Shown piece after piece: positions 1,293 through 9,473 of a stretch of 64,000 nucleotides of DNA. The position numbers were made by a program, and so were the translations under genes. Within the stretch, counting starts at the first letter, position 1. Each line of letters starts with the position of its first letter. The stretch is from contig OY970399.1 of assembly GCA_963720545.1 (NCBI GenBank), positions 3,347,022-3,411,021 of the forward strand, written 5' to 3'. The DNA comes from an uncultured Acidobacteriota bacterium (lineage in GTDB: Bacteria > Acidobacteriota > Vicinamibacteria > Fen-336). A model generated the notes under the pieces. It did not search any database. It was not told where the DNA came from and worked only from the letters and a program-made list of their open reading frames with translations.

Positions 1293-2096
1293 CTACCGCC
1301 GCTGCCGCGCCGCCTCGAACAGCAGCACGCCCGCGGCCACCGCCACGTTCAGGCTTTCGACCACCGGCTTGATCGGCACGCGCACCGGCGCGTCGGCGCG
1401 CCGGACCACCGCCTCGTCGAGCCCGGCGCCTTCGTTGCCGACGATGAGCGCCGTCGGCCGGCGCAGGTCGGCTTCGTCGTAGGGAACCGGCGCGTCGACA
1501 GTTGCAGCGACGGTGCGGATGCCGTGCTGCTGCAGCCAGCCGAGCGCTTCGTCGAGGCTGAGCGAACCTCGGTGGGGAAGCCGGAAGGCACTCCCCATCG
1601 AGCCGCGCAGCGCCTTCCACGAGAACGGATCGGCGCAGCCGGTCGTGAGCAGCGCGCCGGTGGCGCCCGCTGCCTCGGCAGTGCGCAACAAGGCGCCGAG
1701 GTTGCCGGGGTTCTGCACCGCGACGCACACGAGCAGCAGCGCCGGCTGCGCCAGCAGCGCCGCGTCGTCGAAAGTCGGGCGGTTGGCGACCGCCAGCACG
1801 CCCGGACCGTGCTCCAGTTCGGAGAGCTGGCCGAGCAGGTCCTCGTGCATCAGGCGCACCTCGAGTCCGCTGTTCGAAGCCTCCTGGTGAAGGCGTGCGC
1901 CGCGCGCGCTCTCGAGGAAGCGCGGGGTCATCGCCAGGGACGCGACCGAGATCCCCGACGCGAGCGCCTCCTCCACGAGCTTCGGCCCCTCGAGCACCGC
2001 AAGGCTCTCGGCGTCGTCGGCACGATCGAGCAGGGCGCGGATCTTGCGGGCGAGCGGATGGGCGCGGCTGCGGATGATTTCGGAGCCGGGGAGCAT
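1293..2096 (-). CDS. TrmH/SpoU family RNA 2'-O-methyltransferase
   Basis: 267-aa ORF with SpoU-type C-terminal motifs ([26 protein letters not shown]). Its stop abuts the rarA start. Confidence 0.8.
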
Positions 2097-2153: not shown

Positions 2154-2627
2154 ATGGTCCTGGAAATAAAAAAACGCCTGCAGGACGAGATCAACACGCT
2201 CGACCACGAGCTCAAGGTCGCGCTGCCGAAAGAGATCCAGCGGGCGCGTGAATACGGCGACCTGCGCGAGAACGCCGAGTACAAGGCGGCGAAGGAGCGG
2301 CAGAGCTTCCTCCAGGCCCGGCTTGCGCAGCTGCACGTGCGCCTCGCCGCCCTCGCGATGATGAACCTCGACAAGATCCCGAAGGACAAGGTCGGGCTCG
2401 GCTCCACCGTGTCGCTCAAGGACACGAGCACCGGCGAGACCATCGTCTACGAAATCGTCACCCCCGAGGAATCGGATCCGCCGCAGGGACGCATCTCGCC
2501 GTCGTCGCCCATCGGCCGCTGCCTGCTCAACAACGCCAAGGGCGACACCGTCGAGGTGGTGGTGCCGAACGGCAGCAAGGAATACGAAGTCGTCAAGCTG
2601 GTGACCATCCACGACCTGGCCAACTAG
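2154..2627 (+). CDS. greA: Transcription elongation factor GreA
   Basis: 157-aa ORF with an N-terminal coiled-coil and a C-terminal FKBP-like domain typical of GreA ([20 protein letters not shown]). Confidence 0.9.
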
Positions 2628-4106
2628 GTGAAGGAGTACTCCCCCAAGCGGCGCACGGCCGCGGTGTTCACGGGCACCGGCGTCTCGGGCGCCTACCACG
2701 CGGGGGTGCTGAAGGCGTTCGAGGAGAGCGGCTTCAAGATCGACATCATGGTCGGCTCGGGGGTCGGCACCATCGCCGCCGCATTCGGCGCCGTCGCGGG
2801 TGGTGCGCGCTTGTTCTCGGCCGGCGGCTTCTGGCCGACGCTGCGCGGCGCGTCGCTCTATCGCCTGCGCCCGGAGGCGCGCGCGCTGCAGCTGCTCATG
2901 GGCGTGGCGTTCGGCGTGTTCGTGCTGCCGCTGATCCTCGCGGTGATCGCGGCGCTCTTCTTCCCGCTGATCCTGCTCGCCGACTTCGTCTCGCCCGGGG
3001 TGCTCGCGCGCTTCGCGGCGCCGTGGCCGTCGCTCGAGGTGATGCGGCCCGCCTACGTCGCGGCGCTGGCGCTGCCGGCGTTCCTGCTGTTCGGCGTCGG
3101 CGGCGCGTGGCTCCTTTATGCCGCGGTGCGCGATCGCCGCCTGCTGCTCGAACGCTTCGAGCACCTGGTGGACGCGTCGCCGGCGCGGGCGCTGCTGCGC
3201 GGCAAGTTGTGGGAGGTGGTGCGCGGCGCCGATGTCGCGCAGCAGCCGCCGCGCGACGCGGTGCTCGGCGAGCGCTACGTGGCGCTCAACATCGAGAACC
3301 GCGGCCAGCTCGGATTCCACGAGCTGATCGTGCGCGCGGCCGACCTCGACTCCGGCCAGGTGCACACCGCCGTCCTGCTCGGCGACGCGGCGCGCGACGC
3401 GTTCCTCACTGCGCGCGGCTCGCGGCGCGGCGGCGACGCCGTCTCGGGGCTTCTCGACCTCACGGCCACAGGTGCCGCGGGCACCCTGTTCCCGACGGTG
3501 CTCACCGGCCTGCTGCCGCCGCTCGTCACCCCGCCCGAACGCCTCGCGTTCCCGAAGGGCGCCACCCACGCCGGCGAAACCCACCGCCTCGTCGAAGCGA
3601 CGCTGCTTGGCGGCTGCGGCATCGCCGAAGCCATCGACGCCGGCGCGGAGCAGATCGTGGTGGTGGCGGCGGTGGCCGAGAAGCCGTCGCCGCCGCTGCG
3701 CCGCCGCGGGCCGCGCGCGCTTGCCGACGCGCTCCTCGAAAGCCTCGAGCGCGACGCGTTCGAACGCGAGCTGGCCGAGTGCGAGCGCTTCAATCGTCTC
3801 GTCGAAACGCTCGGCCATCGCCACGAAGGGGCCGGCGCTGGCCGCGCCTGGCAGGATCCCGCCACCGGCCGCCTGTACCGCGACATCTCAATCTACGTCG
3901 TCCGCCCGCAGGCGCGCTCGCTGCGGCCGTTCGACCACGAAGGCACGCGCGACCCGGCGACCGAAGTGGAAGAGACGCTGGGCGACCTGCTGCAGCGCGG
4001 CCACGCCGACGCGTTCCGCTTGTTCATCGAACCGGTCGTCGGCGCGGCGCCCGTGCCGAGCCGCGCGCCCGACCTCGAAGAAGAAGGACAGCCGATAGAA
4101 CTCTAG
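2628..4106 (+). CDS. Patatin-like phospholipase family protein, apparently without the catalytic Ser/Asp dyad, with central transmembrane segments
   Basis: N-terminal oxyanion-hole-like GTGVSGAYHAGVL is present. Where GxSxG is expected the sequence is VGSGVG, and no clear DGG/A Asp motif is seen. Hydrophobic helices occur around residues 95-160. GTG start directly follows the greA stop. Confidence 0.55.
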   Translation: MKEYSPKRRTAAVFTGTGVSGAYHAGVLKAFEESGFKIDIMVGSGVGTIAAAFGAVAGGARLFSAGGFWPTLRGASLYRLRPEARALQLLMGVAFGVFVLPLILAVIAALFFPLILLADFVSPGVLARFAAPWPSLEVMRPAYVAALALPAFLLFGVGGAWLLYAAVRDRRLLLERFEHLVDASPARALLRGKLWEVVRGADVAQQPPRDAVLGERYVALNIENRGQLGFHELIVRAADLDSGQVHTAVLLGDAARDAFLTARGSRRGGDAVSGLLDLTATGAAGTLFPTVLTGLLPPLVTPPERLAFPKGATHAGETHRLVEATLLGGCGIAEAIDAGAEQIVVVAAVAEKPSPPLRRRGPRALADALLESLERDAFERELAECERFNRLVETLGHRHEGAGAGRAWQDPATGRLYRDISIYVVRPQARSLRPFDHEGTRDPATEVEETLGDLLQRGHADAFRLFIEPVVGAAPVPSRAPDLEEEGQPIEL

Positions 4107-4117
4107 GCAGGGAACCA

Positions 4118-5302
4118 ATGAAGAAGACCCTCGCGCCCCCGCGCGCCTTCGCAACCCGCGCTGTCCACGGCAGCAGGATGCCGGCCTCCGGCCCGCTGGC
4201 GACCCCCATCGTGCAGTCGTCCACCTTCGTATTCGAGTCGTCCGCGCAGATGCGCGACTACCTGCACGGCGATCCCGCGCTGCACCTCTACACGCGCTAT
4301 TCGAACCCCACGCTCGCGGCACTCGAGGAATCGCTCGCGCAGCTCGAGGGCGGGGAAGGGGCCATTGTCTTTTCGTCGGGGCTCGCCGCGATGACCACTG
4401 CGCTGTGGTCGACGCTCTCGGCGGGCGACGAAGTGCTCGCGAGCTCGTCGCTCTACGGCGGCACCACCAAGTTCATCCGCAAGATACTGCCGCGCTTCGG
4501 CGTCGCGCACCGGATCGTGCCGGTCGCCGAGATGAGCCGCCTCGAGAGCTATCTCTCACCGAACAGCAAGGTGGTGGTGCTGGAGTCGCCGACCAACCCC
4601 AACGTGGACATCGTGGACATCGCGGCGGTGGCGCGCGCCGCGCACGCCCGCGGCGCCCTGGTGATCGTAGACAACACCTTCGCGACGCCTTTCAACCAGC
4701 GGCCGCTCGAGCTCGGCGCCGACCTCGTCATGCACAGCCTGACCAAGGCGCTCTCGGGGCACAGCGACATCATCGCCGGCGCGCTCATCGGCTCGGCCGC
4801 GCACCTCGAGCCGGCGCGCGAGCACCTGAAGGTGCTGGGCGGTTGCATGGATCCGCACGCCGCGTATCTCGCGCTGCGCGGCCTCAAGACCGTGCACCTG
4901 CGCGCCGCGCGCCAGGCGGAGAACGCAATGGCCGTGGTGCAGGCGCTCGCCGGGCACCCGAAGCTGTCGCGGGTCCTCTATCCCGGCCTGCCGTCGCACC
5001 CGGGCCACGCGATCGCGAAGCGGCAGATGGCGACCTTCGGCTCGATGTTCGCGCTGTCGTTGCGCGGCGGCCTGGCGGCTGCCGAGAAGTGCTACGACGC
5101 GCTCGAGCTCGTGGGCCGGGCGGCGAGCCTCGGCGGCGTCGAGTCGATCGTCAGCCTGCCGGTGCACACGTCGCACCACGGATATTCGGACGAGGAGCTG
5201 GCACAGGCCGGCGTCGATGCCGGCATGATGCGCTTCTCGATGGGCGTCGAGGACGCGCGCGACATCGCCGCCGACATCGAACAGGCGCTGGACGCTTCGT
5301 AA
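4118..5302 (+). CDS. Cys/Met-metabolism PLP-dependent enzyme (cystathionine gamma-synthase / gamma-lyase family)
   Basis: 394 aa from ATG 4118. PLP-lysine motif SLTKALSGHSD and family-typical N-terminal region (TRAVHG...PIVQSSTF). The N-terminal 365 aa of track ORF 3023..5302 are Arg/Ala-rich low complexity and are rejected. Confidence 0.8.
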   Translation: MKKTLAPPRAFATRAVHGSRMPASGPLATPIVQSSTFVFESSAQMRDYLHGDPALHLYTRYSNPTLAALEESLAQLEGGEGAIVFSSGLAAMTTALWSTLSAGDEVLASSSLYGGTTKFIRKILPRFGVAHRIVPVAEMSRLESYLSPNSKVVVLESPTNPNVDIVDIAAVARAAHARGALVIVDNTFATPFNQRPLELGADLVMHSLTKALSGHSDIIAGALIGSAAHLEPAREHLKVLGGCMDPHAAYLALRGLKTVHLRAARQAENAMAVVQALAGHPKLSRVLYPGLPSHPGHAIAKRQMATFGSMFALSLRGGLAAAEKCYDALELVGRAASLGGVESIVSLPVHTSHHGYSDEELAQAGVDAGMMRFSMGVEDARDIAADIEQALDAS

Positions 5303-5357
5303 ACGCAGCAGGTAGCAACTCAACCTCAACCACGATCTTTCGAATCGAAGGAGGCGC

Positions 5358-6950
5358 ATGCTCGCCAGTCTGGTCCTGCCGTTGCTGCTCGTCGTCGCCC
5401 CGCCCCAGGAGAAGGATGCGAAGCCCGCCGCGGCCGCGTCCGACAAGGCGGACAAGTCGGCGAAGTCCGACAAGGCGGACAAGGCGGACAAGGCGGAAAA
5501 GAAGGATGCGGACGGCAAGTCCGACGAGACCGAGCCGGTGGTCACGAAGCACGAGATCAACGTCAACGGCAGGCCGCTGCGCTACACCGTCACCACCGGC
5601 ATGATGCCGCTGCGCAACGACCAGGGCGAGAAGGAAGCCGACATCTTTTTCATTGCGTACACCGCCGAGCGCCCCGGCGCGCCCGACAAGCGGCCGCTGA
5701 TGTTCTCGTTCAACGGCGGGCCCGGCTCGGCGTCGGTGTGGCTGCACCTTGGCGCCCTCGGCCCGAAGCGCGTGCAGATGCAGGACGACGGCGCGATGCC
5801 GGCGCCGCCCTACAAGCTCGTCGACAACCCGCAGACCTGGCTGGCCGACACCGACCTCGTGTTCATCGACCCGGTCGGCACCGGCTACAGCCGGCCTGCG
5901 AAGCCGGAGCTCGGCAAGAAGTTCTGGGGCCTGCAGGGCGACCTCGAGTCGGTGGGCGAGTTCATCCGCCTTTACCTGACGCGCTACGAGCGCTGGACCT
6001 CGCCGCTCTTCCTGGTCGGCGAGAGCTATGGCACCACGCGCGCCGCGGGCCTGTCGGGGTACCTCGTGGACCGCTCGGGCATTGCCTTCAACGGCATCGT
6101 GCTGGTGTCGTCGATCCTCAACTTCCAGACCGCGCGCTTCACCAAGGGCAATGACCTGCCGTTCCAGTTGTTCCTGCCCACGTACACCGCGTCGGCCTGG
6201 TACCACAAGAAGCTGCCGGCGGACCTGCAGGCAAAGCCGCTGCGCGAGGTGCTCGACGAAGCCGAGCAATTCGCCGGCAGCGAGTATCCGATCCTGCTCG
6301 CGAAGGGCTCGAGCCTCACCGCCGCGGAACGCGCCGCGATGGTGGACAAGGTGGCGCGTTTCACCGGCCTCAGCAAGAGCTACGTGGACGCGGCCGACAT
6401 GCGCATCGAGATCCAGCGCTTCTGCAAGGAGCTGCTGCGCGCGGAGCGGCGCACCGTGGGCCGGCTCGACAGCCGCTTCGAGGGCATCGACGCCACCGCG
6501 GCCGACGACTCGCCCGAGTTCGACCCAAGCATGGCGGCCATCCGCCCGCCGTACACCGCCGCGCTCAACGACTACGTGCGCCGCGAGCTCGGCTACAAGT
6601 CGGACGCGCACTACTGGATTCTCGGCGGCGGCATCAAGACGCCCTGGGATTTCGGCGAGATCGGCTTCGGCGCCGCCGACGTCAGCGACTCGCTGCGCCA
6701 GGCATTCGCGCGCAACCCGTCGATGAAGGTGTTCGTCGCGTCGGGCTACTACGACCTGGCGACGCCGTTCTTCGCCACCAAGTACACCTTCAACCACATG
6801 GGTCTCGACGCCACGCAGTCGAAGAACATCTCGACCGGCTACTACGAAGCCGGTCACATGATGTACATCGCCGTGAAGGAACTCGACAAGCTGAAGCAGG
6901 ACGTCTCCGCTTTCATCAGGACCTCCTTGCCCTCGTCCGCATCGAACTGA
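5358..6950 (+). CDS. Peptidase S10 (serine carboxypeptidase) family, secreted
   Basis: Signal peptide; motifs FNGGPGSAS and active-site GESYGT; Lys/Asp-rich DKADK linker after the signal peptide. Confidence 0.8.
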   Translation: MLASLVLPLLLVVAPPQEKDAKPAAAASDKADKSAKSDKADKADKAEKKDADGKSDETEPVVTKHEINVNGRPLRYTVTTGMMPLRNDQGEKEADIFFIAYTAERPGAPDKRPLMFSFNGGPGSASVWLHLGALGPKRVQMQDDGAMPAPPYKLVDNPQTWLADTDLVFIDPVGTGYSRPAKPELGKKFWGLQGDLESVGEFIRLYLTRYERWTSPLFLVGESYGTTRAAGLSGYLVDRSGIAFNGIVLVSSILNFQTARFTKGNDLPFQLFLPTYTASAWYHKKLPADLQAKPLREVLDEAEQFAGSEYPILLAKGSSLTAAERAAMVDKVARFTGLSKSYVDAADMRIEIQRFCKELLRAERRTVGRLDSRFEGIDATAADDSPEFDPSMAAIRPPYTAALNDYVRRELGYKSDAHYWILGGGIKTPWDFGEIGFGAADVSDSLRQAFARNPSMKVFVASGYYDLATPFFATKYTFNHMGLDATQSKNISTGYYEAGHMMYIAVKELDKLKQDVSAFIRTSLPSSASN

Positions 6951-7058: not shown

Positions 7059-9473
7059 ATGGACACCATCTGGCGGGACATCGTGTATGCCGTGCGTGTG
7101 CTTGCCAAGGCGCCGTCCTACGCGGCCATCGCCATCCTCACGCTGGCGCTCGGCATCGGCGCCAACACCGCCGTGTTCAGCGTGGTGAACGCAGTCCTCC
7201 TTCGCCCGCTGTCTTATCCGCAGGCGGAAAGGCTCGTGCTCATCAGCGAATGGTCCGAGCAGGTTCCCGAGATGAGTTTCGCGATGTCGAACTTCAAGGA
7301 CCTGCGCGACCAGAGCACGTCGTTCGAGCACCTCGCCGCCGCCAACCAGGCGAATTTCGTGCTCGGCGGCCAGGCCGAACCGGAGCGGCTGCTCGCGCGG
7401 CAAGTCTCGAGCGACATGTTCGCGACGCTGGGGCGCACGCCGATCCTCGGCCGCGCGTTCACCGCCGCAGAGGACAAGCCCGGCGCCGCCGCCGTGACCC
7501 TCATCTCCGAGGGGCTGTGGGAACGCCGCTTCGGCCGCGACCCGCGCATCGTCGGCCAGAACCTGGTGCTGAGCGGCCAGCCGGTCACCGTCATCGGAGT
7601 CATGCCGAAGACCTTCCACGGCAGCTGGAAGCGCGCCGACCTGTTCATGCCGCTGCTGCGCCTCGAAGACACCATTGGCGGACCCGGCAACCGCGGCAAC
7701 CACCCCGGCATCTACGTCACCGGCCGCCTCAAGCCGGGCGTCACCATCGAACAGGCGCGCGCCGACGTGGTCGCAATAGCGAAGCGCCTGGCCGACCAGT
7801 ATCCCGACACCAACGCCAAGCAGAGCATGGTGGTCGACCGGTTCCTCGACGCCTACGTCGGCGAGCTGCGCCCTTCGCTCATGCTGTTGCTCGGCGCGGT
7901 GGCGTTCGTGCTGCTCATCGCCTGCGCCAACGTCGCGAACCTGCAGCTGTCGCGCGCGGCCGACCGGGCGAAGGAAGTCGCGGTGCGCATGGCGCTCGGC
8001 GCGAAGCGCGGCCGGCTGCTGCGCCAGCTGCTCACCGAGTCGGTGCTGTTGTCGCTCGCGGGCGCGCTGCTCGGCATCCTGCTGGCCTTCGGCGGCCTGA
8101 AGGCGCTGGTCGCGTCGCTGCCGCCGAACGTGCCGCGCGCCGACGAGATCGCGATCGACGGTCGGGTGCTGGTGTTCACGCTGATCGTCGCCCTGGTCAC
8201 CGGCGTCCTGTTCGGCGTGGCACCGGCGTGGCGCATCTCGAGCCTGCGCATCAACGATCCGCTGCGCGAGAACTCGCGCGGCACCGTCGGCCCGCAGCAG
8301 CACCGCCTGCGCAACACGCTGGTGGTCGCGGAGGTGTCGCTGGCGCTGACGCTGTTGGTGGGCGCCGGGCTGATGCTGCGCAGCTTCTACCGTGTGCTGA
8401 CCGCCGACTCCGGCTTCAATCCGCACGGCGTGATGTGCGCCAACGTGCCGCTGCCGCAGGCGCGCTACGCCGACGACAAGGCACGCGCGCAGGTGGCGCA
8501 GCGCGTCCTCGAGGGCGTGCGCGCCGTGCCCGGCCTCGAGCATGCGGCGGTGACGCTGCCGCTCCTCGGCGGCTGGCAAAGCGGGTTCACCCTGCAGGGC
8601 CGGCCGGAGCCGCCGCCGGGACAGAACCCATCGGCCGACGTCGCGCGCATCAGCCCCGACTATTTCGCCACCATGGGCATACGCCTGCTGCAGGGGCGCG
8701 GGTTCGACGAGCGCGACGTGCTCGACAAGCCAGCGGTCGCCATCGTCGACGAGACCTTCGTCCGCGAGCACTTCGCGACGGAAAACCCGCTGGGAAAGCA
8801 CTTCAGGTTCGGCGACGCGCAACACGAGGAACCGTGGCTCGAGATCGTCGGTGTCGTCAACCACGTGAAGAACTACGGTGTCGACCAGGAGTCGCGCGTG
8901 GAGGTGTACCTGCCGTATGCGCAAACCTCGGTCGGCTCGTTCACGCTGGTGGCGCGCACCAGCGGCGACCCGGCCGCGCTGACCACCGGCATGCGCGCGG
9001 CGCTGCGCGCCGCCGATCCGCAGCTGCCGATGTACGAGACGCGCACGCTCGACGCCTTGGTGGCCGAAGGCAACGCGCAGCGCAAGCTGTCGGTGCTGCT
9101 CATCGGCGTGTTCGGCGCGCTCGCCCTGGTGCTCGCCGCGGTCGGCATCTACGGCGTGATGTCGTATGCGGTCACCCAGCGCACCCAGGAGATCGGCGTG
9201 CGCATGGCCCTCGGCGCCGAGCAGGAGCAGATCATGAAGATGGTGCTGCGCCACGGCACTACGCTCGCCGCAATCGGCATTGGCCTGGGCCTCGTCACCT
9301 CGCTGGGGCTGGCGCAGCTGGTGAAAACCCTTCTCTTCAACACCAGCACCGCCGACCCGCCGACCTTCTCGGTGGTGCCACTGCTGCTGCTCAGCGTCGC
9401 CGCGGTCGCCTGCTACCTGCCGGCGCGGCGCGCCACGCGCGTCGATCCGATGGTGGCGTTGCGCAACGAGTGA
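7059..9473 (+). CDS. ADOP-type ABC transporter permease (MacB-like, duplicated FtsX permease domains)
   Basis: 804 aa; N-terminal MDTIWRDIVYAVRVLAKAPSYAAIAILTLALGIGANTAVFSV signature; two 4-TM FtsX-like blocks separated by periplasmic domains; no adjacent ATPase gene. Confidence 0.85.
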   Translation: MDTIWRDIVYAVRVLAKAPSYAAIAILTLALGIGANTAVFSVVNAVLLRPLSYPQAERLVLISEWSEQVPEMSFAMSNFKDLRDQSTSFEHLAAANQANFVLGGQAEPERLLARQVSSDMFATLGRTPILGRAFTAAEDKPGAAAVTLISEGLWERRFGRDPRIVGQNLVLSGQPVTVIGVMPKTFHGSWKRADLFMPLLRLEDTIGGPGNRGNHPGIYVTGRLKPGVTIEQARADVVAIAKRLADQYPDTNAKQSMVVDRFLDAYVGELRPSLMLLLGAVAFVLLIACANVANLQLSRAADRAKEVAVRMALGAKRGRLLRQLLTESVLLSLAGALLGILLAFGGLKALVASLPPNVPRADEIAIDGRVLVFTLIVALVTGVLFGVAPAWRISSLRINDPLRENSRGTVGPQQHRLRNTLVVAEVSLALTLLVGAGLMLRSFYRVLTADSGFNPHGVMCANVPLPQARYADDKARAQVAQRVLEGVRAVPGLEHAAVTLPLLGGWQSGFTLQGRPEPPPGQNPSADVARISPDYFATMGIRLLQGRGFDERDVLDKPAVAIVDETFVREHFATENPLGKHFRFGDAQHEEPWLEIVGVVNHVKNYGVDQESRVEVYLPYAQTSVGSFTLVARTSGDPAALTTGMRAALRAADPQLPMYETRTLDALVAEGNAQRKLSVLLIGVFGALALVLAAVGIYGVMSYAVTQRTQEIGVRMALGAEQEQIMKMVLRHGTTLAAIGIGLGLVTSLGLAQLVKTLLFNTSTADPPTFSVVPLLLLSVAAVACYLPARRATRVDPMVALRNE

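Follow-up and report, generated by a model that had tools for sequence, protein, structure and literature searches.

A conserved patatin-fold protein of the Vicinamibacteria with an inserted, predicted transmembrane hairpin and glycine in place of the catalytic serine

The stretch of DNA analyzed here (the window) comprises 64,000 nucleotides (nt) of contig OY970399.1, from an uncultured bacterium of the acidobacterial class Vicinamibacteria. Close to its beginning, directly behind greA, lies a forward-strand gene, called patL below, whose product combines a patatin domain with an inserted hairpin of two predicted transmembrane helices and a fixed replacement of the catalytic serine by glycine. 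This combination is conserved across the class Vicinamibacteria and marks an apparently undescribed variant of the patatin family, not a new kind of system. No curated model of Pfam, NCBIfam or PADLOC describes such a patatin-like hairpin family, and literature searches found no published account of a bacterial one. The gene and its main features are as follows.

2628..4106, forward strand: coding sequence of the patatin-fold membrane protein, 492 amino acids (aa), GTG start at 2628
2673..2690, forward strand: Gly-rich anion-binding/oxyanion loop GTGVSG, aa 16-21, with Ser20 at the canonical Arg/Lys position
2754..2768, forward strand: nucleophile elbow GSGVG, aa 43-47, with Gly45 at the catalytic Ser position
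2871..3131, forward strand: inserted helical hairpin, aa 82-168 (hydropathy, AlphaFold2 helices, and alignment with aa 76-178 removed)
2889-2981, forward strand: predicted first transmembrane helix, aa 88-118 (hydrophobic span)
3048-3128, forward strand: predicted second transmembrane helix, aa 141-167 (hydrophobic span), following the first after a loop of about 20 aa
3495..3524, forward strand: degenerate patatin block III, TVLTGLLPPL, against AVRASCSMPGL of RssA (hhalign)
3573..3596, forward strand: strand GETHRLVE, aa 316-323, in which G316, E317 and H319 form a family-specific conserved motif
3594-3596, forward strand: Glu323, at the catalytic Asp position (hhalign to Asp155 of RssA)

The start codon at 2628 is fixed by the homologues, which conserve the N-terminal sequence M[KR]EYSPKRRTA with Y4, P6, R9 and T10 invariant. 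A perfect Shine-Dalgarno-like AAGGAG is present at 2631-2636, within codons 2-3 of the gene; at a suitable distance after it there is no in-frame start codon, and the conserved N-terminus begins at 2628. In the Pfam scan, PF01734 matched only aa 13-56 of the window protein, with 26.0 bits, below the cut-off of 27.7, and the same model was matched at E<=0.01 by 27 of 31 family members. The NCBIfam RssA model (NF007623) gave 13.9 bits against an equivalog cut-off of 272.

The patatin domain extends well beyond the short region detected by Pfam. An AlphaFold2 model built from 50 family sequences (mean predicted local distance difference test score, 83.5; predicted template modeling score, 0.82) has the patatin alpha/beta fold, with a central sheet, a Gly-rich loop after strand 1 and a nucleophile elbow after strand 2. 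The fold comparison, whose columns carry no headings, listed the following values.

CapE: 24.6; 263 (root-mean-square deviation, 2.7 Å)
Potato patatin: 23.2; 279
PlpD: 23.2; 242 of 249
CapV: 21.5; 261
iPLA2-beta: 19.9; 262

These comparisons indicate that the whole patatin domain is present and not just the N-terminal ~45 residues. When the family alignment without aa 76-178 was compared with Escherichia coli RssA by hhalign, residues 3-297 of 301 were aligned (probability, 95%; E = 2e-8). The full-length family alignment, on the other hand, aligned only 37-46 N-terminal columns with RssA alone or with an RssA profile, and the wider alignment was reached by trimming to the C-terminal region or by deleting the insert. 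The RssA profile was shallow, as its homologue search gave close orthologues only (72-100% identity to the query). The aligned pieces follow the same order in both proteins: the Gly-rich loops, the nucleophile elbows, AADLDSG against ATNLSTG, block III, RLVEAT against WLVDGA, AGAEQIVVV against LGADIVIAV, and YVVRP against ILIQP. Consequently, the C-terminal ~200 residues, which the first-pass annotation (made by a model from the letters and translations alone) had left unassigned, belong to an ordinary patatin domain.

Within this domain, the canonical catalytic positions are altered. The loop GTGVSG aligns without gaps with GGAARG of PlpD (phmmer); the glycines of the G-G-x-[RK]-G box are kept, and none of 252 family sequences has the basic residue, the position being occupied by S, A, H, D, T or G instead. 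The elbow GSGVG aligns with GTSMG of PlpD in phmmer, with the GxSxG of PlpD and ExoU through the family profile, and with GCSIG of RssA in hhalign. Thus, three kinds of alignment agree that Gly45 replaces the catalytic serine. Among the family sequences with a recognizable N-terminus, position 45 is Gly in 214 of 215 and Ser in none, and the glycines that shape the site, G16 and G18 in the loop and G43 and G47 in the elbow, are invariant or nearly so. All four glycine codons encode Gly45 in 85 genomic loci (GGC, 47; GGG, 29; GGA, 5; GGT, 4), which shows that the glycine has been maintained through synonymous turnover; GGC and GGT are each one step from Ser codons. Ser44 was considered as a displaced nucleophile and rejected, since distant branches have R, H, Q, K, A or C there, with serine confined to the closer clades, and since the small residues that an elbow needs at -2 and +2 are lacking around it.

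At the second catalytic position the picture is different. Both the trimmed and the insert-deleted hhalign alignments place Asp155 of RssA (LVDGA) on Glu323 (RLVEAT), in agreement with the AlphaFold2 model, in which strand 318-323 is followed by a short helix. The 208 family sequences compared here have Asp (153), Glu (29), Ser (13) or another residue (13) at this position. The D-G-[GA] motif is replaced by (D/E)-A-T or D-R-P, and neither GG nor GA follows the acid in the common variants. The first-pass annotation had recognized the oxyanion-hole region, read VGSGVG at the nucleophile position and seen no DGG/A motif, all of which agrees with the alignments, given the aligned context EAT here and DAT or DRP in the relatives. 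Its further claim that the catalytic dyad is lost needs to be divided: a profile-profile alignment of the kind that it had proposed places no serine at the first position and an acidic residue at the second, so the loss of Ser stands and that of the acid is overstated.

The hydrophobic helices that had been seen in the middle of the protein correspond to an insertion of ~100 residues (aa ~76-178), which comes after the helices behind the elbow and ahead of the next conserved block. Hydropathy analysis delimited two segments, aa 84-129 and 141-167, and a pair of long helices spans 82-121 and 136-168 in the AlphaFold2 model; in the model of a distant relative, the first is kinked near a nearly invariant Pro101. 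The family-wide mean Kyte-Doolittle hydropathy is ~2.5 for the first span and ~2.0 for the second, with charges almost absent. The sequences that flank the pair of spans on either side carry 3.2-4.5 Lys plus Arg family-wide, versus ~1.8 in the connecting loop. Following the positive-inside rule, this bias suggests that the hairpin is N-in/C-in and leaves the two halves of the patatin domain on the cytoplasmic side. No signal peptide was found at the N-terminus, where the first strand begins at residue 10. The length of the hydrophobic stretch 84-129 (46 residues) might suggest a topology with three membrane spans, which was rejected because both AlphaFold2 models have one long helix followed by a second one; moreover, an odd number of spans would split a single globular domain across the membrane. 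The insertion site presumably corresponds to the region that caps the active site in canonical patatins.

The family is large and taxonomically narrow. A search of ~5.8 billion proteins at E<=1e-3 gave 745 matches, counted among the candidates scored. The best 120 of these were nearly all full length, with 51-78% identity, came from Acidobacteria/Vicinamibacteria metagenome-assembled genomes, and were named "hypothetical protein" or "patatin-like phospholipase family protein" in the databases. Searching 1.84 billion cluster representatives with a profile gave 3922 matches at E<=1e-3, of which 440 reached E<=1e-10 and 122 reached E<=1e-30, and the most distant full-length members are 27-35% identical to the window protein. 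Furthermore, scanning one genome per GTDB species confirmed 518 relatives, of which the best 80 are almost all labeled Vicinamibacteria, Vicinamibacterales or Acidobacteriota. Four loci (L016, L065, L066 and L082) carry the Vicinamibacteria-type SpoU-greA-patatin-like block on contigs labeled as Hyphomicrobium, Acidimicrobiia or Bifidobacteriaceae metagenome-assembled genomes; these contigs are probably mis-binned.

Outside the canonical catalytic blocks, the family has its own conserved charged motifs, GETHR, ENLGQPGFRE and LWxxxRG, and its own conserved residues W195, Q227, E232, E317, H319 and R320. The window protein and three relatives at 75-78% identity form a separate subclade. At 32 of the 183 positions that are at least 90% conserved in the main clade, the window protein differs, including P228L and R231H in the ENLGQPGFRE motif; the positions noted in this subclade include aa 225, 228, 231, 246, 248 and 323. 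Most of the 32 changes are common to the three relatives, as an identical or similar substitution, so decay of the window lineage was rejected in favor of clade divergence. Glu instead of Asp at position 323 is found in this subclade and in some members of the main clade.

Compared with known systems, PatL shares its fold with the RssA (YchK)/PlpD-type patatins (PF01734), from which it descends. It differs from them by the glycine of the elbow, the missing Arg/Lys of the loop, the change of DGG to EAT (DAT in most relatives) and the hairpin insertion. It therefore misses four of their defining sequence features (a Pfam score above threshold, a basic residue in the anion box, Ser in GxSxG, and DG[GA]), and filing it as a phospholipase is not warranted. 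PlpD is a secreted, outer-membrane-associated protein, whereas the N-terminus of PatL does not resemble a signal peptide and the protein is predicted to face the cytoplasm. The close structural likeness to CapE and CapV does not extend to a role in the cyclic-oligonucleotide-based antiphage signaling system (CBASS): PatL lacks the catalytic serine and is encoded by a conserved chromosomal gene of one class, not by a mobile defense gene. In the window and in the relatives there is no cyclase or other defense gene nearby, the neighbors being SpoU, greA and a pyridoxal 5'-phosphate (PLP) enzyme; a defense role was rejected, as PADLOC gave no match and no CD-NTase (cGAS/DncV-like nucleotidyltransferase) gene is adjacent.

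A glycine at the same position is known from the plant pPLAIII proteins, which have an evolutionarily conserved GxGxG for GxSxG, keep the dyad acid within DGG, and are reported to hydrolyze phospho- and galactolipids in statements that these papers cite from earlier studies (PMC7031755, PMC7284883). The motif is matched by GSGVG here and by G-x-G-x-G in nearly all family members. In contrast to the DGG of pPLAIII, the window protein has EAT and its relatives DAT or DRP; besides, pPLAIII is eukaryotic, and the two papers describe no transmembrane hairpin insertion in it. The best sequence matches of the window protein are bacterial PlpD and RssA, and convergence seems the more likely origin of the GxGxG motif common to the bacterial family and pPLAIII.

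The genes around patL were identified as follows.

1293-2096, reverse strand: SpoU/RlmB-like methyltransferase, divergent, upstream of greA (Pfam and NCBIfam)
2154..2627, forward strand: greA (Pfam GreA_GreB_N and GreA_GreB; NCBIfam TIGR01462, 148.7 bits against a cut-off of 139)
4118..5302, forward strand: Cys/Met-metabolism PLP enzyme, 11 nt downstream of patL (PF01053, 412 bits)

The GTG start abuts the greA stop codon (TAG, 2625-2627), as had been noted in the first reading of the sequence, and the two genes are in the same frame. The upstream sequence was long enough in 74 related loci, and the check for co-occurrence proposed in that reading found greA upstream of the patatin-like gene in 69 of these: 35 have the two genes side by side, 34 have a single gene of ~300 aa between them, and the adjacency is retained in relatives at ~30% identity. 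On the other side, 37 of 75 loci have the Cys/Met PLP gene as the immediate downstream neighbor. The gene junctions overlap by 1 and 4 nt in the closest relative. Tight or overlapping junctions together with the greA adjacency support co-transcription, and greA and patL are probably co-transcribed. Since the conserved block of the relatives also contains RarA/MgsA and the SpoU methyltransferase, it reads as lineage synteny rather than as shared function. A functional link to greA deduced from the shared reading frame was rejected, because relatives have a 1-nt overlap, gaps of 17-35 nt or an intervening gene; the shared frame looks like a coincidence in the window genome. Read-through of the TAG at 2625-2627 would give a GreA fusion. 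A scan for consensus promoters and terminators was uninformative (0 promoters; 3 terminator-like sites versus 2.8 expected).

The ~300-aa intervening gene occurs in relatives at 46-60% identity (for instance, at 5075-5980 of locus L001 and 4849-5853 of locus L003) and is absent from the window and from the subclade of the window protein. It carries the precomputed label PF27096 UvrC_M, and a Pfam scan of the L001 copy gave no match.

Patatin phospholipases work through an acyl-enzyme mechanism with a Ser-Asp dyad. Because the serine is glycine family-wide and the Arg/Lys of the loop and the DGG are also lost, PatL cannot form the acyl-serine intermediate of these enzymes. The interpretation that we prefer, with confidence about evenly balanced, is that PatL is a cytoplasm-facing, inner-membrane-anchored patatin-fold module that binds lipids or acyl chains and is non-catalytic or very weakly hydrolytic. 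The complete RssA/PlpD-type domain would be anchored in the inner membrane by the two-helix N-in/C-in hairpin, which would orient the former substrate cleft toward the cytoplasmic face of the membrane and hold it there. Binding of membrane lipids or acyl chains might then serve a role as sensor, scaffold or regulator. The protein would probably be produced from a greA-patL-(PLP enzyme) transcript through termination-reinitiation at the TAG-GTG junction. In this interpretation the fold, the insertion, the substitutions, their conservation in the family and the synteny are computational results, whereas the topology, the membrane-facing cleft, lipid binding, the absence of turnover and co-transcription are deduced from them. 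By analogy, the patatin-like TgPL1 of Toxoplasma gondii, which lacks the serine and phospholipase A2 (PLA2) activity, has been proposed to bind phospholipid or to assist other PLA2 enzymes (PMC10513453), a function that would match lipid binding by PatL; TgPL1 is a protein of a eukaryotic parasite with a role in host interaction, and the likeness lies in the shared fold. Several points weigh against this interpretation. The predicted topology is based on hydropathy, charge bias and AlphaFold2 helices, and the trimmed-region alignments that place Glu323 on the catalytic Asp are weak alone (E = 6.6e-4 and 0.018). An acidic residue is kept at this position in 182 of 208 sequences (87%), which suggests that the old active site may still be under selection. 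In addition, loss of the serine leaves inactivity unproven, given that the GxGxG proteins of the pPLAIII type are reported to be active. Thus, the earlier description of a membrane-anchored patatin-fold pseudoenzyme appears largely right in its anchor and fold and overstated in its inactivity.

In the main rival explanation, which we regard as possible but rather unlikely, PatL is a serine-independent acyl hydrolase, thioesterase or transacylase at the membrane surface, and Asp/Glu (Glu323 in the window protein) directly activates water or an acceptor. The retained acid and the preserved geometry of the site, with its four nearly invariant glycines, would fit such an enzyme, as would the lipid hydrolysis ascribed to pPLAIII, itself quoted from earlier studies in the papers cited above. 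However, ~12% of the family is non-acidic at the Asp position (Ser, Ala, Gly, His or other), neither the glycines of DGG nor the anion-binding Arg/Lys remain, and we know of no nucleophile-free patatin mechanism that has been demonstrated structurally, which counts further against it. Recruitment of the patatin fold as a protein-protein scaffold or regulator of its operon partners (for instance, as a membrane tether or modulator of GreA or the Cys/Met PLP enzyme), with no direct role for lipid, seems improbable to us. The persistence of greA upstream, the abutting or overlapping junctions and the charged motifs outside the catalytic blocks speak for such a scaffold; on the contrary, the functionally unrelated RarA/MgsA and SpoU methyltransferase in the same block point to lineage synteny, about half of the loci with greA have the ~300-aa gene between it and patL, and only about half of the loci have the PLP gene as the next one downstream. 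Finally, high-GC DNA contains many spurious long open reading frames and the Pfam score is under threshold, so a decaying patatin pseudogene or an open reading frame artifact has to be considered; this idea is refuted by family conservation and retains practically no credence, in view of the motifs conserved in hundreds of full-length homologues (30-78% identity), the synonymous codon turnover at Gly45 and the confident AlphaFold2 models.

PatL is a candidate lipid-binding or regulatory membrane protein, and the label "patatin-like phospholipase family protein" probably overstates the function of these proteins. The findings reveal a serine-less patatin fold joined to a membrane hairpin and long kept under purifying selection in a bacterial lineage, and they advise caution in lipase annotation in Acidobacteria, which are abundant soil bacteria. 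The family also gives studies of how GxGxG patatins work, plant pPLAIII and Toxoplasma TgPL1 among them, a bacterial comparator that is experimentally tractable. A more far-reaching version, to which we give little credit, would make PatL a class-wide membrane-lipid sensor or serine-independent lipid-modifying enzyme of the Vicinamibacteria, with GxGxG plus Asp/Glu as a bacterial, likely convergent counterpart of pPLAIII and the placement behind greA reflecting a real coupling of membrane and transcription. Were this true, it would provide a simple bacterial model for patatin folds that work without a serine nucleophile.

Two further genes of the window were noted downstream. Positions 5358-6950 encode a serine carboxypeptidase S10-like protein (PF00450), whose hydrophobic N-terminus leads into a low-complexity stretch rich in Lys, Asp and Ala (KDAKPAAAASDKADKSAKSDKADKADKAEKKDADGKSDE). 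Positions 7059-9473 encode an 804-aa permease with the N-terminus MDTIWRDIVYAVRVL, which we take to resemble the duplicated MacB/FtsX-type "ADOP" permeases. Permeases of this type are common in Acidobacteria, and the one at 7059-9473 fits the taxonomy assigned to the window.
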